A stretch of DNA of 26,081 bases from an uncultured virus (IMG/VR IMGVR_UViG_3300044732_003010) (IMGVR_UViG_3300044732_003010:62001-88081), one strand, 5' to 3'. Counted from the first letter of the stretch, positions 4,686 to 22,681 are shown. The notes: generated from the letters alone by a model not told the origin. Numbers and translations are program-made.

Positions 4686-7600
4686 TGTCTTTATCACTTG
4701 GTACTTTAGAAATCGGTCTAGGGCTAAATACAGCCCAATATGATAGCGGCATCAAATCGGCTAAAGACCAGCTTTCTTCCCTAGAGCGTCGTGTCACTAA
4801 ACTTGGCACGACTCCACTAAAAATTAAAGTTAGCGTCGATGACCGTCAGCTTTATGGGCTAAATAGTCATTTACTTTTAAAAAGAGTTGACCTTAAAAAG
4901 ACAGTTGATTTTTATAAAGCAAATCCTATTAAAGTATTTGCTGAAGATGACGCATTAGTTTCTCTTAACCAAGAGTTGCGTGAATTAAAAAAAACATCAG
5001 TAGAGATAAGAACACCTTCTAAAATTGTTGTTGAGCATCGGTTTTCTGGGTATCAAGATCGGGTAGAGAAAGCGATTGATCGATCTACTTCTCGAATATC
5101 GTCAGAAATTAGAATATCCTCTAGCAAAGGAGGCGTTGCAGGCGCAATTGGCCGTATTTTAATGTCTCCTTTTAAACTTGCGGGACGAGTTCTTGATGAC
5201 ATGGTTACTGGTTATTTCGAGAAACTAGGTCAATCCTTTGCAGAAGAGATAGGCGTAACATCAGCTAAAAATACAGCTAAAAAAATTAAATCCGCAATAA
5301 CAAAAATTGATGAACAATTAATTGGTAAAAACCAAGTATATGAAACGTTTTTATCGGAATTTTTTAGGTCAGGAAGTATAGAAAAAGCTACACAAGCTTC
5401 TTTTCCTCGCACCGAAGTAGGTAAAACTACAGAAAGACTTCAAAAATTACAAGAAATCGCATTAGTGCCTGCAAATAAACCACTGGAGCGTCTGAGATTA
5501 ATTAAAGAAAATTCTGAGTTAAATAAAATTTATCAACAAGTATTACAAAAAATAGAATCGGAAAATCCTGGTATTAAGCCGCGAGAAGCGGGGAAAAAAG
5601 CCATGGCTCAGTTTTTAGTTGACGCACAGCCACAAACACAAGTATTAAAAGGATTTGTTAATTCTTTTATTCAAGAAATGGCTCCTTTATTAAAATTTAT
5701 ACAAGGGATGAGGTCTTATAGAACATCAGTAGAAAGCCAAAAATATTACAACGAAAGAAAAGCAGGTTTTCCATTACTAAGAGAGGGGGAAGATGTAGTT
5801 AGTGTCATTGGAGGAGCGCAATTTAAGGGAGGTCAGGGTGGCAGACAAGTTGTTCAATCAATTGAATTATTAGCTCCTAATAAACGATTTATTCCTGTAG
5901 AAAATCCTGAAACTGATACTGATAAACAAAACCCTAATCTTTTAGAAAAAATGATTAGGGATAAAATAACTGAGATTGCCCCTGATTTTGCTGCTGGAGA
6001 AACCATAGATACAGCAATTAACGCTTTTCGGCAGGTAGTAAACGCTATTAACCCGTTCGGTTATTCTACGGCCGCAGCGCAAGCAATAGCCAATACCAGA
6101 TTAGCTGAAGAACAGGGTAAAAAAGGCAGTGTTGTTAGCTATTCTTTAGGAGGAGCAGATAACCTTCAGTATGCTCAAACAGCATCATATTTAGGAATGC
6201 AGCCACACGCATTAGCCATGGCTTATCCCTTTCTTAATTTTACTCAAAATACACCTAAAGGATTTAATGCAGCATTACTGAGTGGCGACCCTCTCGGTTT
6301 TGCCAAGTTATTAGGAATTGGAGTCAATACTAACCAATTCCGCTCGATTGAAAGTAATACTCCTTTTGGGCTATCAAATCACCACCAAAAACATTTATTT
6401 AAAGAACAACCTTTTCTAGATTTATTTTATAAGACTATTAATGCTGAACAGCCAGATATGACCCCAGGTCAACAATCAAAAGTTGTTCATGCCGGCGATA
6501 AGCTATATGAAGTATTGGGATCGACTCTACAATTAAAGTCACTTAAAGAAACAGGGGAATTTGATAAGACTCTACCTTATCATAGATTCTTGCAAGGATA
6601 CAGCAGTGGCAGTCCTAACGTAAGCGTAGAAGGATTTATTGCAAAGTTTTTTGAAGGGCTTCGTCTTATATCTTCTTTTGATACAAAAGAATTACAGCCT
6701 GTGTCACAAGCTTTAAAAAGTTTAATGGAACCTTTAATTCCATTTATAGCTAAAAAATTTAGACAAGGGGGTGCAAATTTACCAGAAAATCCTCAAGATT
6801 TTGCCGGGTATCAAAAATATCAACAAGAAGCAAAAAGTATAAACAGAGCATTATTAGAATTTAAATCAGGAAAACTTGCTGATACTCCTAGCTGGTATGC
6901 TGGAAATTTAGAGCCTAATGAAGTTAAAAGACGGACAGAAAAGATTAGAACCGAAACAATACCGTGGTTTACTTCTGAAGAAAGTACGTTTGGGCAAACT
7001 TACACAAAAAAAATTGTTGAAGCATACAAAAAAATAGCTGATGTTGCTGATGAATTTATTAAGACAGGAGGAAAACTATCGCAAAAAACCAAAGACAGTA
7101 TAAAAACTTTTGAAGTTGATGAGTTTTCTGGGGAATTAGCAAGTTTTTTAAATACACGCCTTGACACATCAACACTACCAAAAGAAGAAGAAGTAAGACA
7201 ATTACAGGTTACTGTTCCTGAAATTTTTCTGAAAAAGCAATCAGCTATTTTAGCTTACAACAAACTTCTTAACGCCGTAGGTAAAGAAATTCTTCCTGGT
7301 ATTTCTGAAATCAAAAAAATTGGTGCAGGAATGTCTGGAGCCGTTGCTCTTCTTTCAGATAATCTTGTTTATAAAACTGATCTTGACCCAATAGGAGCGA
7401 CAAAAATTGCGTCAGAAGATGAAATTAAGGCTTATGAGAAATTACAAGGTCGTTTGTCTCCTTTATTGTACAAAGCAGTTCCAGGTCAGGCTTTAATTAC
7501 TGAAAGAACACAAGGTCGTCCTTTAAAAGAAATACTTGATCGAATTGCACGTCCTTACAAAGAAATTCAGCAAAAAATACAGGAAGCTAATAAAGCATTA

Positions 7601-10600
7601 GAGTTAGCCATAGACAACAAAGATGCGACTAAAATCAAAGAGCTAAAAGTATTAACCAAAGAATTACAATCGTCTGCCAAAAAAGAACACAATCGTTTTA
7701 ATAAGGCCGCATCTATTCTATATCAACAAGTAGGACAACTTGGAGCATCCTTACAGGAAATGGGTGTTGTTCATAATGATTTAGCTGCAGCAAATGTATT
7801 TTTTGCACAAGGTGGAATTACTTCAATTGATCTCGGAAATGCAAAGGTTGATCCGACTAGCAGTGATAAATTTAACGATAAAATTACTACTATTCAGCGA
7901 GCAATTATTGATTCTAGCTATTACGGATTGATGGATCCTTTTAAAATAATAGGCGCAGTTCAATCTGGCTACTCAAAACCTTTTGCTACTCAAGTTTCTG
8001 ATTCTAATGCCAGACAAAAATCAGCCATTATCCCTCAGAAAAGAGAAATTAATGAAACTCTTCTTTCCCCTGTAGTAACAGGAAAAGCAATTTCATTAGG
8101 TTCATATACACCAACTTTATTAAAGCAAATCGTTGGTGATTTTTCTTTGCCTACTAAAGAAACTGTTTTCGCAAAAATAGATACTCCCGAACAAAAAAAA
8201 GAACAACCAATTCTAGATAATCAACCACAAAAACTTAATGATTTAGCTGCTACAGCTAAATCAAAATTAGAAGATGTTTTAGCTTCACGACTTGGTACTC
8301 CTGATAAATCGGGAGAAATTCAGCACCTTAGCGGGAATGAAGATTTTGCAGAATTACTACAATTAACTCTTGTAAGAGAATTAAAAACAGCAAGCCTTCT
8401 ACTTTCAAAAGCTTTCCGAGACACATCTCTTGACGTTATTAAATTTGGCCAGGTTGTTTTTACAGTCTTAAAAGCGATCGAGCGTCCAGTAATGGCTTTA
8501 CCTGGTGCTGCAATAGGTAAAAAAGCTATTCAGGTAGGGGGAACGGCTGCTATGGGAGCCGCCGCTCTCCACGCTCTCCCGATGGGGCTAGATGCCACGG
8601 TTGTCAATACTATGCGAGATATTCTTGCAGGGGCGATGAGTGCTGGCGGTCGGGGAATGGTCCAAGCCGTAGCCACACAAATGACTCAAGCTTTTAGCGG
8701 CTTGCCGTTTGGAGTGGGACAACAGCTAACGGAAGCAGTAGTGCAGCTTGTAACCGAAATAACTAACGGCACTATCAGCGTCCTATCGCAGGGGGGAGCA
8801 GTTGCTGGATCGGCGTTAATGGCCGGTGAAGGTGTTAAGAGACTCTTAGGAGCGGCTACCAGTAATGTTCCTAAATTAATTAGCAAAGAAGAACAGCAAA
8901 AAATTGAGGGTAAAACCCAGAAAGCATTAAAAGCGGCAAAGAATAAAGCTGATTCTTTGATTACCACTGAAATAACTCCATATTTCGATGAGAGAGTCTT
9001 CCCAGCAAGTAACCCTATTCCAGCTAACATCAAGGCAATTAACCCAGAATATTACACGGTAAAACAATTACGAGGATTGGCCAGAAATCAGGGAATTGAC
9101 GTACCAGCATCAGGAGCAGGAGCCAGAAAAGAGGAAATATGGAAATCGTTGACTGAAAAATTTAACCCTGATCAGCTAACTCGACTTTTACTAACAACAA
9201 AAGCAAGTGATAGAACAAAATTAGGGAAAAAAGAACTTAGTGGATTCCAGGTTGCATCTACAGAAATTCCTGCTGATTTTACTAAGAGAATTGGCATTGG
9301 CATAAAAAACATTGGTCAAGAAATTAATACTACTAAAGATATCCAATCTTTAGAACGTCTTTATTTTCAATTAGAAAAAGTTAAAAAGGGAATTACAGCG
9401 TTAAGAGCTAATCCTGAATTTAACACAACAAATATTAATAAATCATTAAGTGGCTTTTTACAGTCAGTTGATAATTTACAGACACAAATTCTTGCTAAAG
9501 GTGGTTTGGAGTCAGGGAAAAATCTCAACAAAGGTTTAGCTAAAGGATTAAAAGATACTAGCGCAAGCGACATCGCCTATCAAAACGCTCTTAAAATAGT
9601 AGATCAAATTGATAAAGGGCTGGGAAATGCTTCACCATCTTGGAAGGGGGAAGAATCGGGAGAAAATTTTATTAAAGGTGTGGCAATTGGAATAGAAAAA
9701 GGAATTTCTTCTTTTGATTTTCAGAGTTTAGCTAGTGAAGTTGTTAAAGGATTTGAATCAGGGTTGTCACTTGGCGATATTGAAAAAATTATTCAATCTT
9801 ATTTTGATGTAAATATTCCTAACTTAAAAGATTTAGCTGTTGAAGCGAAAATGATGGGGTGGGAAGGTAAACCAATTGACGGGCTACTAGAAAAAAAATT
9901 AAGCAAATTCCCTCTATCAAAAACTTTTACTCCTGTTGAACCCCCAAAAAATAATATTATTTCTTATCCTACCCCTACACGATTAATTGAATCAAACTTA
10001 CCATCGGAAAATGCGTTAGCTTCTGCTAGTATTAGACTCAAGCAATTATCTAATTTTTACGCTGGACATAAAACAGCTTTTGCAAATCTCAAAGCTATTT
10101 TAACACAAGGAATAGACCCTACTTTTAATCAATGGAGTTTAAGAAGAGACAGATTTGATTTTGAAAAACAAGTTTTCAAAGAACCTGTTGCTTATAGCGC
10201 AATTAACTCTTTTTCCGAACCGATTAAAGGAAATGATTACTATGGCGATGCTGAAATAATGCTCGATATAGCAAAAATTGCCAACCGATCAACATTTACT
10301 AGAGGTGACTCTGGTGCTTTTTGGAGAAATCCAAGCGAGATAATAACAAATCCTTTGTCTAGCTTTACACCAGACCAATACAATCGCAGACCTAATGAGA
10401 TACTTGAATACCTTGAGGTTCAAACTACTGGCAAAATTGATCCGTCTGATTTTTTAGGGATTAATTTAGGCGATATAGAAGAAAAGTACAATATTTATGG
10501 ACGCAAACTCATTGAAGTTATTGCATCTTCTTTAAGTGCTGGCGTTCCAGTATTCGCAAAAAACCTTGAAGCGATTAGTTCGATGTTTTCCAGTGAGGGC

Positions 10601-13600
10601 AGACAGTCTGGGTTAAATTATATCAAGGGGTTAAATATTGGATTACAAAATAATAATAGCGAAAAATACGCTTTAGATGTTGCGATTGGAATTATCGACG
10701 CAACAAATAAAGGGCTGGGAAATGCTTCACCGTCTAAAAAAGCGATGAAAGCAATGCGGTTTTTTTATGAAGGATTAGCGTTAGGGGCGCGTCATATTCG
10801 CTTCGGATTAAGGCTAGAGACTCAATTCGATAAAGAAGTAAGCGATTTTACTTTCTTTGTCGGGACGAGGTCAAAAGAAGCCCGAAAAGCGATCCTTCAA
10901 GCTGTTAAAGAAATGGTAAACCAAGGGGAACGCCTAGCGGCTATTAACGAGATTCAAGGCTCGATGAACACGGGAATTTTCGCTTCTCCCCGCGCTTTTC
11001 AAGTGATGAAGCGAGCTACCGTCATCGCTCGTCCAAAAACAACACGAGAAGAAATTCTTGACGACTGGAATAAAAAACGAGACAACATTTTCAACGCTCT
11101 CGATAGCATTGAAAAAGCGGGCGTTTCTAGTGGTTTTACAAACGGTATCGTAAGCGGACTAAAAGCTGTTATTGCCCAAGCGGACGGATTTATTAATTTC
11201 CTCTCGGTTGGTGGCAAAGCACTCAGAACTCTCGACCAAGAACTTAATGCCGCTACAGGAGGTATGATTAATCTTCGTAAAGGTGCTATAGCGGCAATTG
11301 GGGGATTTGCTCTTTTCAAAGGAGCAGAATTTTTATTACGACCTCTATTTTTTGCTATTTACGATATTCCTTTTAGGATTCAACAAGCTGTTACTGATTC
11401 TTTACTTGCTTTTACTGAGTTACAAAGAATTAAATTAAATTTAAATCTTGCTGGTGTAGGCAATGTAGAACAATCTCTTGACGCTTTAGTGGCAAGGGCT
11501 GACAAATTAGGAATATCCTTTAAAGAATCCGCTATTGCTTATAGCAGATTCAAATTAATTACTACCAATTCTCCACTACAAGCGCAGGCAGATAATATTT
11601 TTGAAGGATTCCAAGAGGCATTATCGGCGCGACAAACCAATGCCCAACAGCAAGCTGAATCTTTTAGAGCTATCGGGCAAATAGCCTCTAAAGCTGTTGT
11701 TTCCGTTGAAGAATTCACGCAGCAATTGAGCGAGTCAGGAGGATTAAACGACGCTTTAAACGTGGCCGCCCGATCAATGGGGTTAACCACTGCTCAATTT
11801 TATCAACAAGCATCAGCAGGCAATCTTTTGGTACAAGATGTTTTACCTCGATTAGCGGCCGAATATGAACGGATGAGTGCCGGAGGTCTTTCTCTCTCTA
11901 CTAAAACTTTACAATCGGAAATCTCTCGATTCCAGAACAATACCGAACAACTTCAAATGCAGTTAGGGGAAAAAATTGGAGTAGTCGCTTACCCTGCTTT
12001 ACAGGCATTAAATGCCGTCTTGAGTACCTTAAATGACAATCTAGGGACGGTGGCATCAGTGGGAGCCGCCGGGTTACTGTCAGTCATGGGATTCTTAGGA
12101 AAATCAGTCATGCAATTTGCGGCAGCGGGTCGGTTAGGAGCCGTTGCCAGTGCTGCTATGAGTGCATCCTTACAATCTGCCGGAGTAGCGTCTCTATCTA
12201 CAGCTACAGCCATGGGTAGATTAAAAGTATCTATAAACCTTGCTACTTTAGCAGGAATAGGATTAATTAAAGCATTGATTATTCCTACTGCGGTGATAAC
12301 TGGTATTCAATTTGTTTATAACGCATTAAATGCTGGTAGCGAAGAACTAAAACAAGCTGTAAGAACCCTAGAAGAGTCTAAAAAAGCTCTTGATGCTTGG
12401 CAAAACAAAACCGATAACAGTAATCGCAAAGGCCTAACAAGCTTTTTGCCTGACATGGAATTGTCTGGAGGAGAAAAGTTTTTTAATGTTATAACATTCG
12501 GGATTGTTTATAATTCTAAATGGCTTATGTCACTATTAGAATTACGACAAGGACTAGAAAACATTGATAAATCTCTGGCTACTGGAGTTGGGAATCTTAA
12601 AGAATATCAAAAAACTTTATCTAATTTTTCAGGTAGCAAGCAATTTTCATCTGAATTACAAGAAATCAGAAATAATTTAGCTTTAGTCAGAGCAGAAAGA
12701 ACAATTGCAAGCGCAAAAGGAAACGACCGATCTGTAGCTGAATTTAACCGGCGAGAGCAGGATTTAATGAAGCAAGAACAGGAGCTAATTAATAAACAGT
12801 TAGGTCCCGTTGGGTCAAGAATTACTGCCGACCTTCAACAATATGAGATGGCGTTAGCATCGTTAGAGCAAAGCTTTAAGAATAGAGATATAACTGACAT
12901 TGCTTACGCGCAACGTAAAAAAGACCTCGTGACTATAATTGGTCAACTAAAAAAAGCGGAACAAGATTATCTACAAGTCTTGAAAGATCAAGAAAAAGAA
13001 TATAGAAAATTACAAGTTGCCTTTGATCTTGCTATAAGAACAAGAGCTAATGCCAATTTTGCTAATGAAGGAAATAGTTTAAGTCGTTCAATTGGATTAA
13101 ATCAACAATTTGCATCAGGGGAAATTAATGAATTTCAGTTTAATGTTAAAGTTCGAGAAGAAAGCTTACAGACTGCTAAAGAGCGTATTGCCACTTTAGG
13201 CAATACAGCTAACTCTATCTCTAATACTTTAAACGAAAGGCTATCTAAATCTGCCAATAAAGTTTTAAGCACTTACTTTAAAGAAGATCTAAAACAGCTA
13301 AATGTAGCGAGCTTTGGTGGAGCAATTGCTGGAAATTTACTCTCTCCTGATGCTATTCAGCAAATAATGGATCAGTATGAATCTGACCTAAAAGATAACG
13401 CTGCTTTAAGATCTATTTTAAATCAGGCTAAAGAATACGCAACTGCTCGACGAGATATTTTAAACACTGAGAAAGAAATTCAGCAAATTAGTCGAGAGAT
13501 TATTGTCGAAAGAAAGAAAAGACAAATACAAGAAAAACAGGCTAGTAAAGAAATTGTTAAAGCAGAACAACTTACTAATCTAGCCAATAAAACCTCCTCC

Positions 13601-16600
13601 AGTCAAAATATTGGCTACGGACTAGAGCAAACCAAAATAAACTTGGCAGCTCTTTATAATCAATTAGCCTTAGAGCAAGAAAAATTAGTATTAAACGTAG
13701 ATGATCCGTTAACGGTCAAAACAGCTATTGCAAATATCACACAGCAAATAGCTGAAACCGAACTATCTTTAAGAGATCAGCAAGAGCAACTACAATACTA
13801 TTACCGCAACCTTGGCCGTCAGATAATCGACTTTAATCGTCAGATTGAAGATTATAGAAGACAGATTGAAGATGCTCAACTGTCAGCTTTTAGAGGAAAT
13901 CGTTCTCTATCTGAAAGTTACACTGATTTAGTCAGGGAACTCGACAAGAAACTCTTAAATGCCCAAAATCAGCTACTGGATGCGACCGATAGAATCAGGG
14001 TACAGCAAGTTAAAAACCGTTTATTAATACCCGGTACAAGCGACGCTGGTAAAGAATTAGGTGACATTTTCCTAGAATTTGTCCAGGGACAAGCTGACCT
14101 TGCCAGTCGCGGTCGCACCTTCCAATCCCGAACCGAGGAGATAGAAACTTCCTATATCTCTACTCTAAGAAATATTCGTAACTTACAAGAGCAACAGCAA
14201 GACGCTGAAAGAAGCCGACTAAGAACGATTGAGGATATTAAACGGACTCAAGAAAACCTTAATCGCACCTTAGCTGACTTAATCCGACAAACCAATAAAG
14301 AATTAGGCTTTATTCCCCAATCAATCAAGGATATTGTCACAAATCTTAATACACTTCCAGAACCAATTAAATTAATCAATTCTGAGTTAGTGGCTATTCC
14401 CCCAAATATTAAGACTTCTGGAGAAGACTTAATAAAAAGTATAGAAGAAACTGCGGAGGCAATTAGAAAAGCTAAGGAAGGTTTGATACTACCAGCACCT
14501 AGTAATTTCACCCCTGCTCCTGTGTGGAATGGGGGAGGGGTTTTACCGCCGCCACCGCCACAGTCGTCTTCAATTCCCAAAGGGTTAACACCACGCGGTC
14601 GAGAATTATCTCAATATTTAAACAATCCTCACGTCAAGGCCTTTCTTGATATTATTGCTTACGCAGAAGGTACTGCCAATATGCCAAATAAGGGATATAA
14701 CACCCTTTTTGGCCATGGACAATTTAGTTCTTTTGCAGACCATCCACGCCAAAGAATTCCGTTTGGATCAACCAGTTCATCGGCATCTGGAAGATACCAG
14801 ATCATGGATTTTACATGGAATGAAGAAAAAGCAAAATTAGGATTAAAAGATTTTTCTCCTGTCTCTCAAGATTTAGTCGCATTAAGTCGTATTTTAATGA
14901 GAGGTGGATTAGACGAGCTTCTTAAGGGAGATATTCGTGGGGCAATTAACGCAACCCGCAAAGAATGGGCATCTTTCCCAGGGGCTAATTACCCAGGGCA
15001 AGGCATGAAACGGATGGAAGACCTGTTAAGGGTTTACGATCAGTCTTTACGAAAATACCAACCAAATGCCCCTCGTACTCAATCCGAACTAGACGCACTG
15101 CGATATGACGGCAATCCTGCTAACAGCGGAGCATCAAACCGTATTCGACAAATCAGAAGAAATCAAGGCGGTTTACCCACTCCATCAACTTCCACCCCTA
15201 ACCCTTCTCCATCAGTTCAGCAACAAATCACCAACAGATTACCAAAAAATATTCAATCTGTTTTAGTTCAAGAAGTTGGCGGAAAAACTGTATATTCTAA
15301 AAATGCTCAAACACCTCCAGCGTCACCAGCTAGTACAATTAAAGTTATTATTGCTGATTTGATTGCCAAAGAAATAACAAGCGGAAAACTTTCCTTAAAA
15401 GATGCTATCGCCATAAAATTGCCTTTGGTTGATCCACACGGACAATTAAAAGCCAATCAAGTTAAAACAGTTGAACAGCTAGTACAGTTAATGCTAGAAA
15501 AGTCAGATAATACGGCAACTAATGTTTTAATTGATCGGCTAGGTGGGCTAACCAAAGCTACAGAATTAGCCAGAAAAGAAGGTTATAAAAACACTACTAT
15601 TTCTAGGTATTTAAATATACCAGGCAGTGGAACTCCAAACATTTCAACAGCACAAGACGTAACGTTAGCTATGCAGTCTTTAATTAAAAATCAAAATCCT
15701 GCAAGTCAATTAGCTGAACAATCTCTAAGACAAACAAGAAATTTTAAGTATAATAATGAAATCGGCGGAAAAATTGGAAATAACTCTAAAGTTATTGGTA
15801 ATGTTGGACTGGTAAACATTAATGGGAAAGAATATATTGTAACTGCTTATGCAAACATTAACGGCAATCAACTAAATAATCGAAAAATAATAACTAATGC
15901 TACTAATGCAATTAGCCAATCCATTAAAGACTCCACCCCTAACCCTTCTCCTGCCCGTGTTTTAACAAAAGAAGAAACAAAAGAAGGAAAAGGTGGACCA
16001 GAATTTAGTAGTCCTCCACCCATAGCTCAGTTACCGACTTTACCTAATCAAAACCGAGATAATTTCTGGGATGCCGATTTACCACCGGTTCTTAAAGACA
16101 ATCCGATTAACTTCCAGAGTCCTAATTTGCCTCCCGTTCCCAATCTTCCTACGGGTAATCTTGGCGCAGCGGCTGATCAAATTCGCAACGCTGAAACAGC
16201 TAATCAAAACGCTGAGGAGTTTTCAAGACGACTAGAAGAGCAACAAAATCTAAACAAGGCTCTTGACAGATCAATGAAATTTAGACGGCAGCAAGAGGAA
16301 GATGCCCGTGCATTAGAACGTACTTTAAGAAATGCTTCCGAAAATGTCGCTGATTTGACTATCAACTCTAAAGGGTATCTGACAGTACAAGAAGAAATTA
16401 ATAAGAGTGCTACAGAAGTCTCTCGTCAATATCGCTCTCAAATTGAATCACTAGAAGACCAGCGACGGACTTTACTTTTAAATGCTGAGGCTCAACAAAA
16501 ATACAGCGACGCGATAAAAGAAATCTTAGGAGAATTTCAAAGAAAAGGTATAGCTCTCCCCCCTGAATTTACCAAAGAAATGATAGATAGTATTGACGCT

Positions 16601-17833
16601 TTAGCTAAACGCGCTGAATTAGCTAAAGAACAGGTAGCAATTCTTGATCAAGCGATTGAACAATTAGGCAAGAATCAGGGAGTAGCCAGCTTAGAAGCAT
16701 CATTTAGAAAAACCAGAGATACAGTCAGGAGTATTCGTGATCGGTTAAATGATTTAACTATCCAAAGAATGAAGTTAGAGAATCAAGCCCGACCGACTTT
16801 ATTTGATGATTCTGCTATCCTTGCCGAACGTATTAGCCTACAAAAAGAAAAAGAGGAACTAGAGGATTATTTAGAACCTTACAAAGACTTACCACAATAC
16901 GCTGAATTTGTGGCTAATATTCGCTCGGAATGGGAAAAACTTGCAGAATTAAGATTAAAACGAGCGGAGTTAAACGCTTCCCCAAATCGTGGCGCAGCTG
17001 AAAGCTTTTTCTCTGATATTAGAGAAGGAAAAGGAATAGGATCGGCTTTTAGTAGTCTTGGATTAAATATCATGACAAAATTTGTTGAGGGTATTACTAA
17101 GCCCGCTATCGATGCTTTAACTTCTGCTATCGATGGATTTACAAAGCCGATTACTCAGGCATTTGAATCAGTATTTAATGCAATCATCGGTCCAGTAGGT
17201 AACTTTTTCACTAATGCCCTCAGTAGCATTTTTAAACCAGTAGGTAACATCTTTTCCTCTATCTTTGGGGGCGGTGGCGGAGGTGGCTTATTTAATGGCT
17301 TACTTAGCGGAATAACAGGGATTTTTAGTGGAGGGATTGGGGGACTTGGTTCGATTGGATCACTTGGTAGTATAGGAGCCTCTAGTTTTGCTTCTGCTCC
17401 GGCTTCTGCCTTTTCTCTAGGTACAGGATTCAGCTTATTTAGTGATGGCGGGAAAGTTGGAGATGCCAATGTTCCGATAGAGAAAAATATCATTTCAGCT
17501 TTTCAGCGCGAACGAGCAATGTCGGGAGGCCGAAAACCTCGCTTGATCGTAGCTAATGAAGACGAATTGGTTCTTAACCCTAAAGAAACAGAAGCATATC
17601 TAGAGTACAGAAATAATGCTCCTATTAAGAACTATGCTAATGGAGGATTTGTCGGGGGTAAGCCTAATTACTCCACAACCTCAAATAACAATAGCTCTAA
17701 TCAGTCTTTGGTAATTAATAACACCAATAACGTGACTGTAGAATCACGGAATGATATGGGGTATAGTTTGAATCAATTGAAAGAACGGGAAAATGCACAA
17801 AATGAACGAACTAAAAAACGATTCTTTGGGTAA
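4685..17833 (+). CDS. Giant multi-domain tape measure protein (~4382 aa) with alpha/beta-hydrolase-like, kinase-like, ART-like, lambda-type lysozyme and PBP/class-A beta-lactamase-like domains
   Basis: N-terminal SLGTLEIGLGLNTAQYDSGI, GLGNASPS motifs, tape-measure core (GQIASKAVVSVEEFTQQLSE...AARSMG ~11400-12100), long coiled coils, position after G/GT; ATG 4685 overlaps the gpT stop (TAATG) with a GGGGAG RBS. Confidence 0.9.
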   Translation: MSLSLGTLEIGLGLNTAQYDSGIKSAKDQLSSLERRVTKLGTTPLKIKVSVDDRQLYGLNSHLLLKRVDLKKTVDFYKANPIKVFAEDDALVSLNQELRELKKTSVEIRTPSKIVVEHRFSGYQDRVEKAIDRSTSRISSEIRISSSKGGVAGAIGRILMSPFKLAGRVLDDMVTGYFEKLGQSFAEEIGVTSAKNTAKKIKSAITKIDEQLIGKNQVYETFLSEFFRSGSIEKATQASFPRTEVGKTTERLQKLQEIALVPANKPLERLRLIKENSELNKIYQQVLQKIESENPGIKPREAGKKAMAQFLVDAQPQTQVLKGFVNSFIQEMAPLLKFIQGMRSYRTSVESQKYYNERKAGFPLLREGEDVVSVIGGAQFKGGQGGRQVVQSIELLAPNKRFIPVENPETDTDKQNPNLLEKMIRDKITEIAPDFAAGETIDTAINAFRQVVNAINPFGYSTAAAQAIANTRLAEEQGKKGSVVSYSLGGADNLQYAQTASYLGMQPHALAMAYPFLNFTQNTPKGFNAALLSGDPLGFAKLLGIGVNTNQFRSIESNTPFGLSNHHQKHLFKEQPFLDLFYKTINAEQPDMTPGQQSKVVHAGDKLYEVLGSTLQLKSLKETGEFDKTLPYHRFLQGYSSGSPNVSVEGFIAKFFEGLRLISSFDTKELQPVSQALKSLMEPLIPFIAKKFRQGGANLPENPQDFAGYQKYQQEAKSINRALLEFKSGKLADTPSWYAGNLEPNEVKRRTEKIRTETIPWFTSEESTFGQTYTKKIVEAYKKIADVADEFIKTGGKLSQKTKDSIKTFEVDEFSGELASFLNTRLDTSTLPKEEEVRQLQVTVPEIFLKKQSAILAYNKLLNAVGKEILPGISEIKKIGAGMSGAVALLSDNLVYKTDLDPIGATKIASEDEIKAYEKLQGRLSPLLYKAVPGQALITERTQGRPLKEILDRIARPYKEIQQKIQEANKALELAIDNKDATKIKELKVLTKELQSSAKKEHNRFNKAASILYQQVGQLGASLQEMGVVHNDLAAANVFFAQGGITSIDLGNAKVDPTSSDKFNDKITTIQRAIIDSSYYGLMDPFKIIGAVQSGYSKPFATQVSDSNARQKSAIIPQKREINETLLSPVVTGKAISLGSYTPTLLKQIVGDFSLPTKETVFAKIDTPEQKKEQPILDNQPQKLNDLAATAKSKLEDVLASRLGTPDKSGEIQHLSGNEDFAELLQLTLVRELKTASLLLSKAFRDTSLDVIKFGQVVFTVLKAIERPVMALPGAAIGKKAIQVGGTAAMGAAALHALPMGLDATVVNTMRDILAGAMSAGGRGMVQAVATQMTQAFSGLPFGVGQQLTEAVVQLVTEITNGTISVLSQGGAVAGSALMAGEGVKRLLGAATSNVPKLISKEEQQKIEGKTQKALKAAKNKADSLITTEITPYFDERVFPASNPIPANIKAINPEYYTVKQLRGLARNQGIDVPASGAGARKEEIWKSLTEKFNPDQLTRLLLTTKASDRTKLGKKELSGFQVASTEIPADFTKRIGIGIKNIGQEINTTKDIQSLERLYFQLEKVKKGITALRANPEFNTTNINKSLSGFLQSVDNLQTQILAKGGLESGKNLNKGLAKGLKDTSASDIAYQNALKIVDQIDKGLGNASPSWKGEESGENFIKGVAIGIEKGISSFDFQSLASEVVKGFESGLSLGDIEKIIQSYFDVNIPNLKDLAVEAKMMGWEGKPIDGLLEKKLSKFPLSKTFTPVEPPKNNIISYPTPTRLIESNLPSENALASASIRLKQLSNFYAGHKTAFANLKAILTQGIDPTFNQWSLRRDRFDFEKQVFKEPVAYSAINSFSEPIKGNDYYGDAEIMLDIAKIANRSTFTRGDSGAFWRNPSEIITNPLSSFTPDQYNRRPNEILEYLEVQTTGKIDPSDFLGINLGDIEEKYNIYGRKLIEVIASSLSAGVPVFAKNLEAISSMFSSEGRQSGLNYIKGLNIGLQNNNSEKYALDVAIGIIDATNKGLGNASPSKKAMKAMRFFYEGLALGARHIRFGLRLETQFDKEVSDFTFFVGTRSKEARKAILQAVKEMVNQGERLAAINEIQGSMNTGIFASPRAFQVMKRATVIARPKTTREEILDDWNKKRDNIFNALDSIEKAGVSSGFTNGIVSGLKAVIAQADGFINFLSVGGKALRTLDQELNAATGGMINLRKGAIAAIGGFALFKGAEFLLRPLFFAIYDIPFRIQQAVTDSLLAFTELQRIKLNLNLAGVGNVEQSLDALVARADKLGISFKESAIAYSRFKLITTNSPLQAQADNIFEGFQEALSARQTNAQQQAESFRAIGQIASKAVVSVEEFTQQLSESGGLNDALNVAARSMGLTTAQFYQQASAGNLLVQDVLPRLAAEYERMSAGGLSLSTKTLQSEISRFQNNTEQLQMQLGEKIGVVAYPALQALNAVLSTLNDNLGTVASVGAAGLLSVMGFLGKSVMQFAAAGRLGAVASAAMSASLQSAGVASLSTATAMGRLKVSINLATLAGIGLIKALIIPTAVITGIQFVYNALNAGSEELKQAVRTLEESKKALDAWQNKTDNSNRKGLTSFLPDMELSGGEKFFNVITFGIVYNSKWLMSLLELRQGLENIDKSLATGVGNLKEYQKTLSNFSGSKQFSSELQEIRNNLALVRAERTIASAKGNDRSVAEFNRREQDLMKQEQELINKQLGPVGSRITADLQQYEMALASLEQSFKNRDITDIAYAQRKKDLVTIIGQLKKAEQDYLQVLKDQEKEYRKLQVAFDLAIRTRANANFANEGNSLSRSIGLNQQFASGEINEFQFNVKVREESLQTAKERIATLGNTANSISNTLNERLSKSANKVLSTYFKEDLKQLNVASFGGAIAGNLLSPDAIQQIMDQYESDLKDNAALRSILNQAKEYATARRDILNTEKEIQQISREIIVERKKRQIQEKQASKEIVKAEQLTNLANKTSSSQNIGYGLEQTKINLAALYNQLALEQEKLVLNVDDPLTVKTAIANITQQIAETELSLRDQQEQLQYYYRNLGRQIIDFNRQIEDYRRQIEDAQLSAFRGNRSLSESYTDLVRELDKKLLNAQNQLLDATDRIRVQQVKNRLLIPGTSDAGKELGDIFLEFVQGQADLASRGRTFQSRTEEIETSYISTLRNIRNLQEQQQDAERSRLRTIEDIKRTQENLNRTLADLIRQTNKELGFIPQSIKDIVTNLNTLPEPIKLINSELVAIPPNIKTSGEDLIKSIEETAEAIRKAKEGLILPAPSNFTPAPVWNGGGVLPPPPPQSSSIPKGLTPRGRELSQYLNNPHVKAFLDIIAYAEGTANMPNKGYNTLFGHGQFSSFADHPRQRIPFGSTSSSASGRYQIMDFTWNEEKAKLGLKDFSPVSQDLVALSRILMRGGLDELLKGDIRGAINATRKEWASFPGANYPGQGMKRMEDLLRVYDQSLRKYQPNAPRTQSELDALRYDGNPANSGASNRIRQIRRNQGGLPTPSTSTPNPSPSVQQQITNRLPKNIQSVLVQEVGGKTVYSKNAQTPPASPASTIKVIIADLIAKEITSGKLSLKDAIAIKLPLVDPHGQLKANQVKTVEQLVQLMLEKSDNTATNVLIDRLGGLTKATELARKEGYKNTTISRYLNIPGSGTPNISTAQDVTLAMQSLIKNQNPASQLAEQSLRQTRNFKYNNEIGGKIGNNSKVIGNVGLVNINGKEYIVTAYANINGNQLNNRKIITNATNAISQSIKDSTPNPSPARVLTKEETKEGKGGPEFSSPPPIAQLPTLPNQNRDNFWDADLPPVLKDNPINFQSPNLPPVPNLPTGNLGAAADQIRNAETANQNAEEFSRRLEEQQNLNKALDRSMKFRRQQEEDARALERTLRNASENVADLTINSKGYLTVQEEINKSATEVSRQYRSQIESLEDQRRTLLLNAEAQQKYSDAIKEILGEFQRKGIALPPEFTKEMIDSIDALAKRAELAKEQVAILDQAIEQLGKNQGVASLEASFRKTRDTVRSIRDRLNDLTIQRMKLENQARPTLFDDSAILAERISLQKEKEELEDYLEPYKDLPQYAEFVANIRSEWEKLAELRLKRAELNASPNRGAAESFFSDIREGKGIGSAFSSLGLNIMTKFVEGITKPAIDALTSAIDGFTKPITQAFESVFNAIIGPVGNFFTNALSSIFKPVGNIFSSIFGGGGGGGLFNGLLSGITGIFSGGIGGLGSIGSLGSIGASSFASAPASAFSLGTGFSLFSDGGKVGDANVPIEKNIISAFQRERAMSGGRKPRLIVANEDELVLNPKETEAYLEYRNNAPIKNYANGGFVGGKPNYSTTSNNNSSNQSLVINNTNNVTVESRNDMGYSLNQLKERENAQNERTKKRFFG
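9612..10731 (+). repeat. 25-bp perfect direct repeat pair (9612-9636 and 10707-10731) inside the tape measure gene
   Basis: ATAAAGGGCTGGGAAATGCTTCACC twice, 1095 bp (365 codons) apart. Confidence 0.9.
15191..15951 (+). repeat. 20-bp perfect direct repeat pair (15191-15210 and 15932-15951) inside the tape measure gene
   Basis: TCCACCCCTAACCCTTCTCC twice, 741 bp (247 codons) apart. Confidence 0.9.
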
Positions 17834-19570: not shown

Positions 19571-19606
19571 TACTTGACATTTCTGTAAAGCTTATGGTAT
19601 ATTTAA
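19571..19606 (+). promoter_or_regulatory. sigma70-type promoter, copy 2, upstream of the nuclease gene
   Basis: TTGACA (19574-19579)-18 nt-TATATT with TG extension. Confidence 0.75.
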
Positions 19607-19612
19607 ATAAGA

Positions 19613-21316
19613 ATGAAAGAAGGTCGATCCATAAAAGCCATGCTAGTCAAGAAAACTATTGCGGACATAAAACTTAACCTTAATGCCACTCAGCGAACCT
19701 ATATTGATCGCTGGATGGACGAGCTTAAAGCTGTCTGGAATTTTGGGCTAGAGCTACTGATGGAATATCAGCTTAATAAGTATTACGACGAGCTTGAGAA
19801 AATAACAGGAAAACCAGTTAAACGGGTTAAACGTCGTTTAGCTAAAAAAACTCAATTTATTGACTCCCTAAAAAACGAAAAAGGTAAATCCCTTCCTAAT
19901 CCCCTTTACACCCCTAAATATTTAACTGGCAAGCAAAAAGTTAAAATACAGATAGCTAGAGAAAAAAGACAAAAAGCAGGTTACTCTTATCCTGTCCATA
20001 TCCCTATTCAACGGCGGTTAAAATCTGATAATTATTTTGGGTTATGTGGCTGTATTACAAAAGAAAAATGTCCAGAACTATGCAAGGACATCCCTATGGC
20101 TTTTGTCCAAGGGGTTTTAAAAAAGCTTGCTGATTCCTGGAAAGCTTACACCAAACTCGATAAAAAGAATTTAGACAGAAAACTTCCTAGATTTAAAAGA
20201 AAAGAAGATAAAATTAAATCTCTTTATTCTGAGATCAGCAATTGCGCTGTTAGAAAAGGGGATAAAATATCTATAGGTAGCTGTGGCAAAACATTAGGCG
20301 ATTTAAAGATTGTCAACAATACTTTAGATATTCGGTGGGGTGACAGAAAAGCCTCTACCGTATCAATTATCAAATACCCATCGGGATATTATCTAAGTCT
20401 ATTTGGTGAATTTGAAGTAGATGATCTACCTGATTCCGATAAAGCGATCGGTATTGACGTAGGACTAGAATATATAATTAGTACCAGCGACGGCCAACAA
20501 ATTGACCCGCCCAAATACTATAGAAAACAGCAAAAAAGACTAGCAAAACTGCAAAGAAAAACCGCTAGACAGTATAAAGCAGGGGAAAATAAAGACGGCA
20601 AAAATCTCGCTAAAACTCGTGCTAAAGTTGCCAAAACTCACGAAAAAATAGCAAGACAACGCAAAGGATTTAATCATGCCCTAAGTACCGATATTGCTAG
20701 AAATCATGGCGCTGTAGCCGTAGAAGACCTCAACTTAAAGAATTTAATGCGACGACCTAAACCGAAAAAAAGAGAAGACGGTAAAGGCTACGAACGCAAT
20801 AACGCGAAAGCCAAAGGGGGATTAAATAAATCCTTTGCTGATGCTAGTTTAGGACAATTAACTGGTTTTCTTGAAACGAAAATGAAAACTCCCAACCGAG
20901 AGTTTATCAAAGTTCAACCAGCCTATACTAGCCAAGATTGTCCTCGCTGTGGCAATCGTGTTAAAAAAAGTTTATCAACCCGCACCCATAAATGTTTAGA
21001 GTGTGGATGTACTTTACCCAGAGATGTGGCCGCCGCAATCAACATCTTAGGGAAAGCAGACTTCGTAAGAAGCTACCCGGCTTGTACCGGGGAAGTTAAG
21101 CCTCTGAAGGATTTCGATAAGGAATCAGCGCAGGAGGAATTACTTAGCAAGTCCAGCCGATTGTTACTCGGCGAAGAAACCCTCGAAACCTTACTGGTTT
21201 TGACCTCCGAGCCAGTGACACCCAAGAAAAAAACAAGGAAAAGGTCGATCCACTCGCAACCCGCGCAAACAGTCAACGCAGGCTATACGCAGCTTACACT
21301 CTGGGAGACTGGGTAA
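19613..21316 (+). CDS. tnpB: TnpB-family / compact type V (Cas12-like) RNA-guided nuclease, CRISPR-associated
   Basis: IS605 OrfB-like N-terminus; RuvC-I AIGIDVG, RuvC-II VAVEDL, Zn finger CPRC...CLEC, RuvC-III RDVAAAINI; array begins inside the stop region; start may be ATG 19640. Confidence 0.9.
   Translation: MKEGRSIKAMLVKKTIADIKLNLNATQRTYIDRWMDELKAVWNFGLELLMEYQLNKYYDELEKITGKPVKRVKRRLAKKTQFIDSLKNEKGKSLPNPLYTPKYLTGKQKVKIQIAREKRQKAGYSYPVHIPIQRRLKSDNYFGLCGCITKEKCPELCKDIPMAFVQGVLKKLADSWKAYTKLDKKNLDRKLPRFKRKEDKIKSLYSEISNCAVRKGDKISIGSCGKTLGDLKIVNNTLDIRWGDRKASTVSIIKYPSGYYLSLFGEFEVDDLPDSDKAIGIDVGLEYIISTSDGQQIDPPKYYRKQQKRLAKLQRKTARQYKAGENKDGKNLAKTRAKVAKTHEKIARQRKGFNHALSTDIARNHGAVAVEDLNLKNLMRRPKPKKREDGKGYERNNAKAKGGLNKSFADASLGQLTGFLETKMKTPNREFIKVQPAYTSQDCPRCGNRVKKSLSTRTHKCLECGCTLPRDVAAAINILGKADFVRSYPACTGEVKPLKDFDKESAQEELLSKSSRLLLGEETLETLLVLTSEPVTPKKKTRKRSIHSQPAQTVNAGYTQLTLWETG
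21070..21170 (+). ncRNA. Putative tracrRNA (omegaRNA-derived scaffold plus anti-repeat) inside the nuclease CDS; ends approximate
   Basis: Hairpin CCCGG-CTTGTA-CCGGG (21076-21091); anti-repeat TACTTAGCAAGTCCAGCCGATTGTTAC (21141-21167) matches the reverse complement of repeat nt 1-27 at 25/27. Confidence 0.75.
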
Positions 21317-21563
21317 CAATCGGCTTGACTTGTTAAGTAGATTGCAAGTTGCCAATTCAGATAGGGCGATAGGTCGTTGCCACGTAACAATCGGCTTGAC
21401 TTGTTAAGTAGATTGCAAGTCCCACTGAGAAGTGATTCAATGTCAATCGATTTCATAGTAACAATCGGCTTGACTTGTTAAGTAGATTGCAAGGAACCGC
21501 TAAAGTGTCGCTGTCAGTCGGTTTTAGGTAACAATCGGCTTGACTTGTTAAGTAGATTGCAAG
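21313..21563 (+). CRISPR. CRISPR array: four identical 36-bp repeats GTAACAATCGGCTTGACTTGTTAAGTAGATTGCAAG with spacers of 35, 38 and 34 bp
   Basis: Repeats at 21313-21348, 21384-21419, 21458-21493 and 21528-21563 with unique spacers; a further 39-bp spacer-like segment at 21564-21602. Confidence 0.97.
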
Positions 21564-21602
21564 TATGAACCAAGTGACACAGAACCCACTACAAAAGAAC
21601 TT

Positions 21603-21711
21603 CAAGCAATTAAGCTTAAGCCTTATTAGGGATTGAAACATCTACTCCTTTGTGGGATAAATCCCACCGGGCCACAGAAACAATTAAGCTTAAGCCTTAC
21701 TAAGATTAAAC
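21603..21711 (+). CRISPR. Second-family mini-array: type I-D-like repeat, 37-bp spacer, degenerate repeat
   Basis: CAATTAAGCTTAAGCCTTATTAGGGATTGAAAC (21607-21639) and CAATTAAGCTTAAGCCTTACTAAGATTAAAC (21681-21711), period 74 bp; canonical ATTGAAAC 3' end. Confidence 0.7.
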
Positions 21712-21736
21712 TAAATATTAAACCCGAAAAAAAACA

Positions 21737-22024
21737 ATGAATCAAACACAACTAGATAAAAAGATTAGTCAATTTTTAAGGAAAAAATTAACCAAAGCGG
21801 AACTAAAAGAAATGGAAATAAAACCACGTTCTTTAATCTTAACAATACGCAATTTTGTCGAGAGGTATCTACTTATCATTTTAGATAGTATTTTTGTTGA
21901 TGTCCCTCGTGGATGGGATAACTTTTTTGAAAGTTTTCGTTTTTGGCAAAAGCTAATACTTAAAAGAAATAAATCTCTGCTAGTAATTTATTTCTGGGAA
22001 ACTATTAATAATTATAAAGAATAA
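21737..22024 (+). CDS. Hypothetical protein (95 aa)
   Basis: ORF in a tightly packed run of three; no motif recognised. Confidence 0.55.
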   Translation: MNQTQLDKKISQFLRKKLTKAELKEMEIKPRSLILTIRNFVERYLLIILDSIFVDVPRGWDNFFESFRFWQKLILKRNKSLLVIYFWETINNYKE

Positions 22025-22027
22025 ATA

Positions 22028-22354
22028 ATGAATCACGAAATTTATCTTATTGGAATACCAACTTTATTGCTAGGATTTCTCTTGGGAACATGGTTAGCCT
22101 ATTTCTCGTGGGCTGACACTCGAAACAAAAAACTTGGTATAGACTTTAAATACCGGTACAAAAAGCCGATTAGTGCTAAGGAATTTGCTATAGAGAATTA
22201 CATCTCTTTAAAACAATCTAAGCAATTCCTTGACAATAAACTTTTAGAGTTTGGGGGAATAGTAGTTTCCCAAAATGGTGACAGTGAATATCATTTTGAT
22301 ATATCAGGATTTCTTATTGAAGAACAAGGCAATGGAAAAATACACTTTGACTAA
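22028..22354 (+). CDS. Hypothetical protein with an N-terminal transmembrane helix
   Basis: IYLIGIPTLLLGFLLGTWLAYFSW hydrophobic segment. Confidence 0.6.
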   Translation: MNHEIYLIGIPTLLLGFLLGTWLAYFSWADTRNKKLGIDFKYRYKKPISAKEFAIENYISLKQSKQFLDNKLLEFGGIVVSQNGDSEYHFDISGFLIEEQGNGKIHFD

Positions 22355-22523
22355 AATAGAACAAGATGGGAGTGCCAAAACTTTCATCTATCAACCAAGT
22401 GACACAGAACCCACTAAAAAAGAACTTAAGGATAAATTAATAGAAATCTTAATGAAAATCAAAACACTGACATCGGAAAAAGTAAATCTAATTTATTTTT
22501 TTATCAAAGTTATAGACAAATAA
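22332..22523 (+). CDS. Hypothetical protein (63 aa) containing the match to the junction spacer
   Basis: ATG 22332 (MEKYTLTKIEQDG...) preferred over 22275; 22389-22427 matches 21564-21602. Confidence 0.55.
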   Translation: MEKYTLTKIEQDGSAKTFIYQPSDTEPTKKELKDKLIEILMKIKTLTSEKVNLIYFFIKVIDK

Positions 22524-22553
22524 CTTTAATTCTGATAGGATAAATTTAAACAA

Positions 22554-22636
22554 GGATTGGTGGCCGAGTAGTCGAAGGCGACAGACTGTAAATCTGTAGA
22601 TTTAATTCCACGCTGGTGCAAATCCAGCCCAACCCA
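22554..22636 (+). tRNA. tRNA-Tyr(GTA)
   Basis: Acceptor GGATTGG/CCAACCC (one A-C mismatch), anticodon arm ACAGA-CTGTAAA-TCTGT, long variable region, T arm GCTGG-TGCAAAT-CCAGC, discriminator A, no encoded CCA. Confidence 0.88.
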
Positions 22637-22652
22637 CTTAAAATCAAACATA

Positions 22653-22681
22653 TTGACAAAATCAAAGACTTGACCTATGAT
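22653..22681 (+). promoter_or_regulatory. Near-consensus sigma70 promoter
   Basis: TTGACA-17 nt-TATGAT; implies the downstream gene starts at ATG 22710. Confidence 0.75.

Follow-up and report, generated by a model that had tools for sequence, protein, structure and literature searches.

A type I-D-like repeat unit behind a type V-U2 array in a Microcystis phage: the probable stump of a second, I-D-derived CRISPR cassette

The subject of this study is a repeat unit at 21603-21713 of a 26,081-nt stretch of DNA from an uncultured virus (the window: the whole stretch that was analysed, positions 62001-88081 of the IMG/VR record IMGVR_UViG_3300044732_003010). That record is 88,081 bp long and rated complete; the window is its final 26 kb. 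The unit follows a CRISPR array that adjoins the gene of a type V-U2 nuclease, C2c8, and its repeat resembles that of the type I-D system of Microcystis. A first-pass annotation, made from the sequence alone, had read the whole as a hybrid array whose transcript might feed both the phage nuclease and the host I-D machinery, as guide or as decoy. Our analysis suggests instead a second V-U2 array, derived from I-D, whose trailer end the unit probably is: a stump remaining after one cassette was swapped for another. Below, A denotes the cassette present in the window and B the second family; G000 is the window's own genome, G001-G005 are sister phages and L-numbers are related loci.

Results

Two repeat families meet behind the C2c8 gene

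The locus comprises these features:

19574..19603, + strand: promoter-like site (TTGACA, 18 nt, TATATT; TG precedes the second hexamer), a short way upstream of the nuclease gene
19613..21316, + strand: nuclease gene c2c8 variant A (C2c8, type V-U2), 567 aa; NCBIfam NF038192 V_cas_c2c8
21141..21177, + strand: anti-repeat in the c2c8-A 3' end, complementary to the A repeat (like a trans-activating CRISPR RNA, tracrRNA, or an omega-RNA)
21313..21563, + strand: variant A array, four identical 36-nt repeats and three spacers
21313-21348, 21384-21419, 21458-21493, 21528-21563, + strand: A repeats (spacing 71, 74, 70)
21349-21383, 21420-21457, 21494-21527, + strand: A spacers
21564..21602, + strand: terminal 39-nt 'spacer', a copy of 22389-22427 with 2 mismatches
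21603..21639, + strand: intact I-D-like repeat of the phage-borne B family, 37 nt
21640..21676, + strand: B-remnant spacer of 37 nt, containing a hairpin of 6-7 bp; the searches described below gave no target
21677..21713, + strand: degenerate terminal B repeat, 74 nt after the intact copy and directly before the next open reading frame (ORF)
21737..22024, + strand: ORF 21737, 95 aa; a B-type repeat lies directly before its homologues
22389..22427, + strand: source-like site of the 39-nt 'spacer', inside ORF 22275-22523; the mismatches are spacer positions 4 and 28

The switch of repeat family after four type V repeats was described correctly by the first-pass annotation: the 36-nt A repeats end at 21563, and a different 37-nt repeat occupies 21603-21639. 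Its 37-nt spacer and degenerate copy at a period of 74 are likewise present, at 21640-21676 and 21677-21713. The statement that the second unit lies in register is true of the spacing, but the 39 nt at 21564-21602 copy 22389-22427 of a neighbouring gene, so that the register rests on a neighbouring-gene piece of spacer length. The hairpin pointed out in the spacer, GTGGGAT-AA-ATCCCAC, does exist but is not noteworthy (-10.7 kcal/mol, z = -1.71, with 12/200 shuffles as stable).

The Microcystis I-D repeat quoted in the first-pass annotation proved right, accounting for 308/369 repeats in Microcystis genome contigs. It is listed as DR1, subtype I-D, in Table 3 of Yang et al. 2015 (PMC4428289). 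A scan of one genome per species, with a pattern accepting both forms of the repeat, gave 19 loci, all in Microcystis or in contigs binned with Microcystis; in a complete Microcystis genome, the host-type array adjoins csc2, csc1, cas3', cas6, cas4 and cas1d. Positions 21607-21639 match the last 33 nt of the host repeat with 3 mismatches, the sole such match in the window and one reached by 0/100 shuffles. Over its full length the intact repeat agrees with the host repeat at 30/37 positions (0/2000 shuffles) and differs at positions 1-4, 12, 18 and 21; it is thus not identical to DR1. Its affinity lies elsewhere, as it agrees at 36/37 positions with a B form seen 17 times in viral contigs (the commonest but two), only the first base being different. 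The proposed host-type I-D unit therefore does resemble the host repeat but belongs to a phage-borne family (36/37 against 30/37).

The intact repeat has both the handle and the hairpin of the host I-D repeat, though the hairpin is weak (-4.9 kcal/mol, z = -0.36), no better than in shuffled sequences. In type I-D, the 3' end of the repeat presumably yields the 8-nt 5' handle. In the terminal copy, hairpin and handle are both spoiled; compared with the intact copy it has two 1-nt deletions, the alignment score of 20 being reached by 0/2000 shuffles. A host I-D array would be linked to cas10d, csc2, csc1, cas3', cas6, cas4, cas1 and cas2 and would have a leader. Neither linked I-D cas genes nor a leader accompany the unit, only the A array lying upstream, and the promoter scan found no promoter-like site of the unit's own. 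No cas6 or cas1 was found in any of the five phage genomes searched (5/5), including G000.

The A cassette itself is well defined. With 369.7 bits against the NF038192 model (curated cut-off 350), C2c8-A qualifies as a V-U2 effector; it contains the Pfam domains OrfB_IS605 and Cas12f1-like TNB, and its relatives occur in 37 viral loci at 94-100% identity. The anti-repeat in its gene pairs with the A repeat over 27-37 nt at 84-93% complementarity, with a predicted duplex energy of -43.1 kcal/mol. The putative promoter upstream, a consensus match with 11/12 hexamer positions, is the sole strong + strand candidate able to drive the nuclease gene, the array and the remnant. Contigs from RNA libraries of four runs span approximately 20906 to 21349, covering the c2c8-A 3' end, the anti-repeat and the first A repeat, with DNA carry-over possible; none of the RNA-library contigs bridges 21564-21603, and contigs cannot show RNA ends. 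In sister phages A arrays hold 2-15 repeats with largely different spacers, and this turnover is seen between genomes whose nuclease genes are, by contrast, 98-100% identical.

The B family in sister phages

Scanning viral contigs for a 16-mer common to the B and host repeats gave 56 loci. The B repeat begins G/A-AAGCAATTAA, continues G/C-CTTAAGCC-TTATTAGGG and ends ATTGAAAC; arrays of it reach 13-21 copies in viral contigs. In cellular genome contigs, B repeats occur in two places only: a 4.7-kb phage-like contig and the start of a small number of host arrays, where they make up the first repeat or repeats. The sister phages G001-G004, genomes of 54-84 kb, have the flanks of the window without its A cassette and carry B arrays of 4-9 repeats in its place (4-13 repeats over all B arrays found at this locus in sister phages). 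In G005 the order is B array, ORF 21737 homologue, c2c8-A and 15 A repeats.

Upstream of the B arrays lies a conserved stretch of about 1.9 kb, in which the phages share 87-93% nucleotide identity with a Microcystis contig. The gene there, c2c8-B, codes for 588-627 aa and exceeds the C2c8 cut-off of 350 (489.4 bits in the host contig, 465.7 bits in G001), sharing 30% identity with the C2c8-A of the window. It is present in G001, G002, G003 and G005. A 200-nt leader overlapping its 3' end precedes 15 of the 17 evaluable B arrays, namely those with at least three repeats and enough upstream sequence, and this leader shares patches with the host I-D leader. RNA-library contigs from three runs join the B leader to a B repeat, although DNA carry-over is again possible.

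The unit in the window has the hallmarks of the far end of such an array. It carries a B repeat, and its degenerate copy, of the kind that regularly closes B arrays, stands before ORF 21737, just as its counterparts in the sister phages stand before homologues of that ORF. Missing directly upstream are c2c8-B and the 200-nt leader, which makes the unit a remnant rather than a complete member of the family. The gene c2c8-B is absent from G000 altogether, where tblastn matches c2c8-A alone (31.7%).

The A and B repeats themselves show some similarity. The alignment score of the A repeat (21528-21563) with the B repeat is reached by 1/2000 shuffles and that with the host I-D repeat by 10/2000, the shared parts being G..CAAT...CTT at the 5' end (for the B repeat, GCTT) and, at the 3' end, GATTG.AA. 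Judging from this resemblance, I-D-type repeats may be the ancestors of both V-U2 repeat families.

A graded series of stumps at the junction

The sequence following the last A repeat was examined in 36 loci; two have no A repeat and one ends too early, which leaves 33 evaluable loci:

3 loci (window, L003, L004; identical arrays): spacer-length piece plus full B repeat
1 locus: 29-nt partial B repeat
1 locus: short piece plus degenerate repeat
4 loci: degenerate repeat reduced to its 3' end
17 loci: only GAAAC (the last 5 nt of the B repeat) plus the trailer found after the B arrays in G002
4 loci (L007, L017, L018, L025): last A repeat, then the 39-nt sequence running on into ORF 22275; fused mid-ORF
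3 loci (L016, L026, L027; G005 type): fused into the 3' part of an ORF 22028 homologue

Such a graded series is the pattern expected from repeated recombination and deletion at a swap site, and it argues against selection for a working unit. Because c2c8-B and its leader are absent here and sister phages keep shorter stumps, the 'hybrid array' is best read as the junction of two rival V-U2 cassettes.

In the four loci fused to ORF 22275, position 4 of the 39-nt sequence has the base of the 'spacer' and position 28 that of the 'gene', which fits a crossover between a spacer and its protospacer. For this reason we lean towards 21564-21602 being an old spacer against a gene of a sister phage. We also considered whether the A cassette had simply inserted itself into ORF 22275 in the manner of TnpB, a reading that the flanks of the window rule out: upstream lies ORF 19196 and not a 5' half of ORF 22275, which is intact downstream. 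The fusions into the ORF 22028 homologue, a further instance besides ORF 22275 of an array end joined to a downstream gene, could be spacer-protospacer deletions, or else represent a layout like that of TnpB, in which the flank acts as the guide.

Phage, host and the search for targets

The phage is long-tailed: the window codes for a tape-measure-sized ORF of 4,398 aa, tail proteins, Rha and two tRNAs. The single 4,398-aa ORF occupies 4637-17833 and is apparently the tape-measure protein, matched by host spacers and by an A spacer of a sister phage; its size implies a very long tail. Spacers of host-type I-D arrays match the phage genome at 54 protospacers (at most 5 mismatches), from which we conclude that Microcystis is the host and that its I-D system targets this phage heavily. 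Upstream of these protospacers, the protospacer-adjacent motif (PAM) reads GTY, with G in 47/54, T in 49/54 and C or T in 53/54. This agrees with GTH, the interference PAM published for M. aeruginosa I-D (review, PMC10212523).

For the spacer of the remnant (21640-21676), the first-pass annotation had suggested looking for counterparts among host cas promoters and phages, and none emerged. There is no target in its own genome, in G001, G002, G003 or G005, in 93 viral loci, in 17 Microcystis genomes (at most 3 mismatches) or in GenBank phages (blastn, E up to 1). In IMG/VR an exact 24-mer is found only in the spacer's own array, in two contigs, and a 22-mer gave nothing in JGI metagenome contigs; a 20-mer match among the latter was dismissed as chance, since the sequences diverge directly after the 20 nt. 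Pairing of the kind used by phage CRISPR RNA (crRNA)-like regulatory RNAs (Cracr) was also considered for two 19-kb host I-D loci. The best 14-nt PAM-flanked seed reached 9 (shuffles: mean 9.2-9.3, max 11) and the best full-length match 21/37 (shuffle mean ~21), so that a regulatory reading of the spacer was rejected, the pairing with these two loci not being above chance.

One B spacer does have a target, and it lies in the nuclease gene of the rival cassette:

21110..21145, - strand: protospacer of the second spacer of the G001 B array, 36 nt, 1 mismatch, in the c2c8-A 3' end

This spacer matches c2c8-A in 33 related loci and in the window. The PAM position, the complement of 21146-21148, reads GTC in 27/33 loci, GTT in 1 and GCT in 5, as well as in the window. 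The codon at 21146-21148 is accordingly AGC (Ser) in the window, as it is in 5 related loci; another 27 have GAC (Asp) here and 1 has AAC. RNA-library contigs from four runs carry the GAC variant (PAM GTC) at 21146-21147. The two-base change removes the GTC PAM, and the changed sequence still pairs with the A repeat through G-U; PAM escape inside a tracr-like element is thus a possible interpretation. GTC and GTT fit GTY, and the sole B spacer whose target is known thereby points to adaptation by the host I-D system. Three leader-proximal B spacers were found in IMG/VR only in their own arrays, and the 20-spacer array of L041 matched GenBank phages through its repeats and ORF 21737 homologue only. 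Because further B spacers gave no targets, the GTY link hangs on a single spacer. Still, B arrays differ in spacers between close relatives even though the phages have no adaptation genes.

Other spacers are informative about what the arrays are aimed at. An A-array spacer of L024 matches perfectly the tape-measure gene of the window (5745-5781; G000 67745-67781) and of G001, and an A spacer from L020 coincides with a B spacer from L041 in the target sequence covered (3-4 mismatches). Both array types seem to be aimed at related mobile elements.

ORF 21737, Ma-LMM01-type phages and host fusions

ORF 21737 belongs to no Pfam, PHROG or NCBIfam family and gave no Atlas lead. Its homologues occur in this siphophage family and in Ma-LMM01-like myophages, and in all 28 loci (28/28) a B-type repeat lies within ~12-25 nt upstream. 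This repeat is degenerate in arrays; it is intact and solitary in six Ma-LMM01-like viral contigs and in the isolate MaMV-CH01 (L143, 2500-2854). In MaMV-CH01 the solitary repeat and the ORF lie ~1 kb from the tRNA-Tyr region, as in the window, where the region at 22539-22672 (tRNA-Tyr, 22554-22637) has 89.6% identity to Ma-LMM01-type myophages. A repeat-ORF-tRNA module is thus, to judge by these alignments, common to unrelated phage families. In G002 and L097 an extra B repeat follows the ORF 21737 homologue, placing the gene inside the array like a 517-nt spacer.

Ma-LMM01 itself (L144, NC_008562.1 ~35763-35946) carries three host-type I-D repeats, identical to DR1 except for a final A in place of C and spaced 73 and 70 nt apart. 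They lie behind a TTGACA...TATAAT promoter-like site, which was read by eye and does not come from the promoter scan. In the NC_008562.1 record their sole annotation is a '56 bp repeat unit' that overlaps small hypothetical ORFs.

C2c8 scores above the cut-off in 3/17 Microcystis species genomes. In all three, c2c8-B, its leader and 1-2 B repeats run directly into host-type I-D repeats with spacers matching these phages (L151/L106, G019:C81; L153, G008:C209; L155, G018:C171). In G019:C81 the crossover shows as a chimeric repeat, B-type in its 5' part and host-type in its 3' part. Directly upstream of c2c8-B lies a cas6 of the I-D type, which shares 94% identity with the cas6 of an I-D operon; cas4, cas1 and cas2 are missing at that place. 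Since host genomes carry such fusions, B cassettes and I-D arrays do recombine in nature, with the proviso that some of the fusion contigs come from metagenome-assembled genomes and may be mis-binned.

Discussion

How the junction may have arisen

Given that the window combines an A cassette with the last repeats of a B array, we consider it probable that 21603-21713 is what a cassette swap left of a second, I-D-derived V-U2 array. The B array family would have obtained its repeats and part of its leader from a Microcystis type I-D array. In the lineage of the window, c2c8-B, the leader and most of the B array would then have been replaced by the rival A cassette with c2c8-A, its internal anti-repeat and four A repeats. 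Recombination would have joined this cassette to the leftover end of the B array, with the 39-nt piece of the downstream gene at the joint, either an old spacer or carried-over flank. The remnant would now be read through from the promoter-like site at 19574 and would have no partner protein of its own. Any activity would have to rely on proteins supplied in trans, either host I-D Cas6 and Cascade or a C2c8-B encoded by the host or by a sister phage infecting the same cell.

Several observations do not sit easily with a mere relic. Over its last 16 nt, among them the 8-nt ATTGAAAC, the intact repeat does not differ from the host repeat, and its hairpin is kept by means of one G-U pair; a relic need not preserve such bases. 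No terminator-like site was found between 21316 and 21737, hence none between the A array and the remnant, which is therefore probably transcribed. The junction recurs unchanged in three contigs that stem from different samples (window, L003 and L004), and in 14 DNA runs at least half of the words sampled from window 21000-21900 are present, although these runs may contain relatives. The three contigs represent one strain with identical arrays and are thus uninformative on selection either way. Candidates for a B anti-repeat are weak (an 11-nt perfect complement, duplexes of -19 to -20 kcal/mol), so that we infer the use of the B array by C2c8-B from their adjacency.

If the remnant were functional, it might borrow the I-D proteins of the host, as guide or as decoy, and we regard this prospect, taking both roles together, as unlikely. 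As a guide, the read-through RNA would be cut by host Cas6, and the 8-nt handle with the 37-nt spacer would load Cascade I-D against a competitor not yet sequenced. The host-identical 3' end of the repeat with ATTGAAAC suits this role, and phages that vary their B spacers between close relatives, yet have neither cas6 nor cas1, must be fed in trans. The only B spacer with a target lies next to GTC in 27/33 loci and GTT in 1, in keeping with GTY as derived here and with the published GTH (PMC10212523), and G019:C81 combines an I-D-type cas6 directly before c2c8-B with a mixed B/I-D array. Against this role, the repeat of the remnant differs from that of the host at 7/37 positions and folds more weakly (-4.9 kcal/mol), the degenerate downstream repeat offers no second cut site, and there is no leader. 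In addition, its spacer has no target in phage genomes, 17 Microcystis genomes, GenBank phages, IMG/VR or JGI contigs, and most sister phages have lost the unit. We thus find it quite improbable that the remnant guides host I-D. The decoy role, in which repeat RNA would tie up host Cas6 and Cas7/Cas5 in dead-end complexes and so weaken I-D, with ORF 21737 as a partner anti-CRISPR, appears very doubtful. The selective pressure is real, as 54 host I-D spacers match the phage, and repeat mimics encoded in viral genomes are known as Racrs (PMC10651486). The constant association of a B-type repeat with ORF 21737 homologues (28/28), solitary and intact in six Ma-LMM01-like contigs and MaMV-CH01, and the three host-type repeats of Ma-LMM01 behind a TTGACA/TATAAT promoter-like site would also be accounted for. 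So would the view of Morimoto et al. 2018, inferred from unchanged cas-gene expression, that CRISPR-Cas is perhaps ineffective against Ma-LMM01 despite matching host spacers. In the window, however, the repeat directly before ORF 21737 is the degenerate one, its handle and hairpin spoiled, while the intact one is part of a repeat-spacer-repeat unit that the finder described in the Racr paper would class as a mini-array (PMC10651486). Moreover, the promoter scan gave the remnant no promoter-like site of its own, and ORF 21737 has no detectable relative of known function.

The remnant might instead serve as a guide for C2c8-B provided in trans by a host or a co-infecting sister phage. Suppliers exist, with C2c8-B above the cut-off in 3/17 Microcystis species genomes and present in G001, G002, G003 and G005, and contigs of three RNA-library runs join B leader and B repeat. 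But the use of B repeats by C2c8-B is deduced from adjacency, with a weak anti-repeat, the spacer has no known target, and arming the nuclease of a rival or of the host brings this phage no clear benefit; we consider the idea highly improbable. The chance that the junction is an assembly artefact or a fortuitous resemblance is almost negligible. It is true that arrays are hard to assemble from metagenomes and that the record is a metagenomic viral contig. Nevertheless, the junction is letter-identical in L003 and L004, two contigs from other samples, the similarity to the host repeat is reached by 0/100 and 0/2000 shuffles, and a k-mer mis-join would require more exact sequence in common between the two repeat families than is present at the joint.

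A more far-reaching picture would combine many of these elements, and as a whole it strikes us as rather unlikely. C2c8-B would have taken over the leader and repeats of host I-D, drawing its spacers from host I-D adaptation and perhaps its crRNAs from host Cas6, and phages would turn such arrays against each other's CRISPR genes. Nuclease-less units, that is, the remnant, the solitary repeats and the Ma-LMM01 repeats, would be I-D decoys with ORF 21737 as partner, and one transcript from 19574 would give both guides and decoy.

Relation to known systems

The closest known counterpart is the V-U2 (C2c8) locus of the cyanophage vB_AphaS-CL131 (Sulcius et al. 2018, PMC6293099), whose nuclease is also the closest GenBank phage homologue of C2c8-A (38.6% identity over 88% of the length). 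In both cases, a cyanobacterial siphovirus carries a TnpB-sized C2c8 gene beside an array of 36-nt repeats and has no adaptation genes. CL131 is described as having one array, with repeats little like those of its host and no tracrRNA found (PMC6293099). Here, by contrast, two C2c8 variants compete for one locus, A has a clear anti-repeat within its gene, and the B repeats agree with host I-D at 30/37 positions. An array that resembles those of the host and lacks cas genes has been described in the Nostoc cyanophage N-1 (Chenard et al. 2016, PMC4916379). Its 37-nt I-D-type (DR5) repeats, ending ...GGGATTGAAAC, are transcribed, and use of host Cas proteins has been proposed (PMC4916379). The N-1 array stands alone, whereas full B arrays lie behind a C2c8 gene and the window has a two-repeat stump fused to another array.

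The viral mini-arrays of SPV1 and SPV2 are directed against related viruses (Koonin and Makarova 2024, PMC11656645). They share with the present system short arrays in viruses without processing or adaptation cas genes of their own, and here, too, a spacer of a sister phage targets a close relative. Those mini-arrays, however, have repeats identical to the host's and spacers matching related viruses, while the window repeat differs at 7/37 positions (30/37 shared) and its spacer matched nothing, so that the remnant is not a mini-array in this sense. Racrs are RNA anti-CRISPRs made of solitary repeats (Camara-Wilpert et al. 2023, PMC10651486), solitary meaning that no second repeat lies within 100 bp; the main text of that paper mentions no I-D example. 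This description suits the solitary B-type repeats that precede the ORF 21737 homologues of Ma-LMM01-like phages. It does not suit the remnant, since a second, degenerate copy starts 74 nt after the intact repeat, and this repeat-spacer-repeat unit would lie in a longer transcript without a promoter of its own. Phage crRNA-like regulatory RNAs (Cracr), in which the spacer pairs in part with a host cas or toxin promoter, are also established (preprint 10.1101/2024.10.29.618823).

The omega-RNA of TnpB overlaps the 3' end of tnpB. A similar arrangement is seen here, with the anti-repeat at 21141-21177 inside the c2c8-A 3' end and the B leader overlapping the 3' end of c2c8-B. What sets the phage cassettes apart is that they have true repeat-spacer arrays varying between relatives, and not one fixed guide.

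For M. aeruginosa FACHB-524, no systems other than those of types I and III are reported in that strain (2025, PMC11855584). In the literature outside subscription journals and supplements, we found no description of Microcystis phages with C2c8 systems, of two alternating cassettes at one phage locus, of I-D-derived V-U2 arrays, or of the repeat units in Ma-LMM01-type phages.

What the locus may tell about V-U2 systems

We know of no function assigned to type V-U2 systems, nor of an established source of their spacers or route of guide maturation. This phage family offers a natural experiment on such systems: two C2c8 variants swap at one locus, arrays turn over, and the A anti-repeat can be read directly from the gene. 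The B variant, with repeats and leader derived from host I-D and with fusions to I-D arrays in host genomes, adds to that experiment. The unit in the window is itself modest, probably only the scar of one such swap; the surrounding system is the more interesting part and worth following. In the one case with an identified target, a phage array is directed at the CRISPR nuclease gene of a rival phage, beside a host-type PAM that the phage studied here has lost. If that generalises, it would mean CRISPR-against-CRISPR competition between the bloom-controlling phages of a toxic cyanobacterium.

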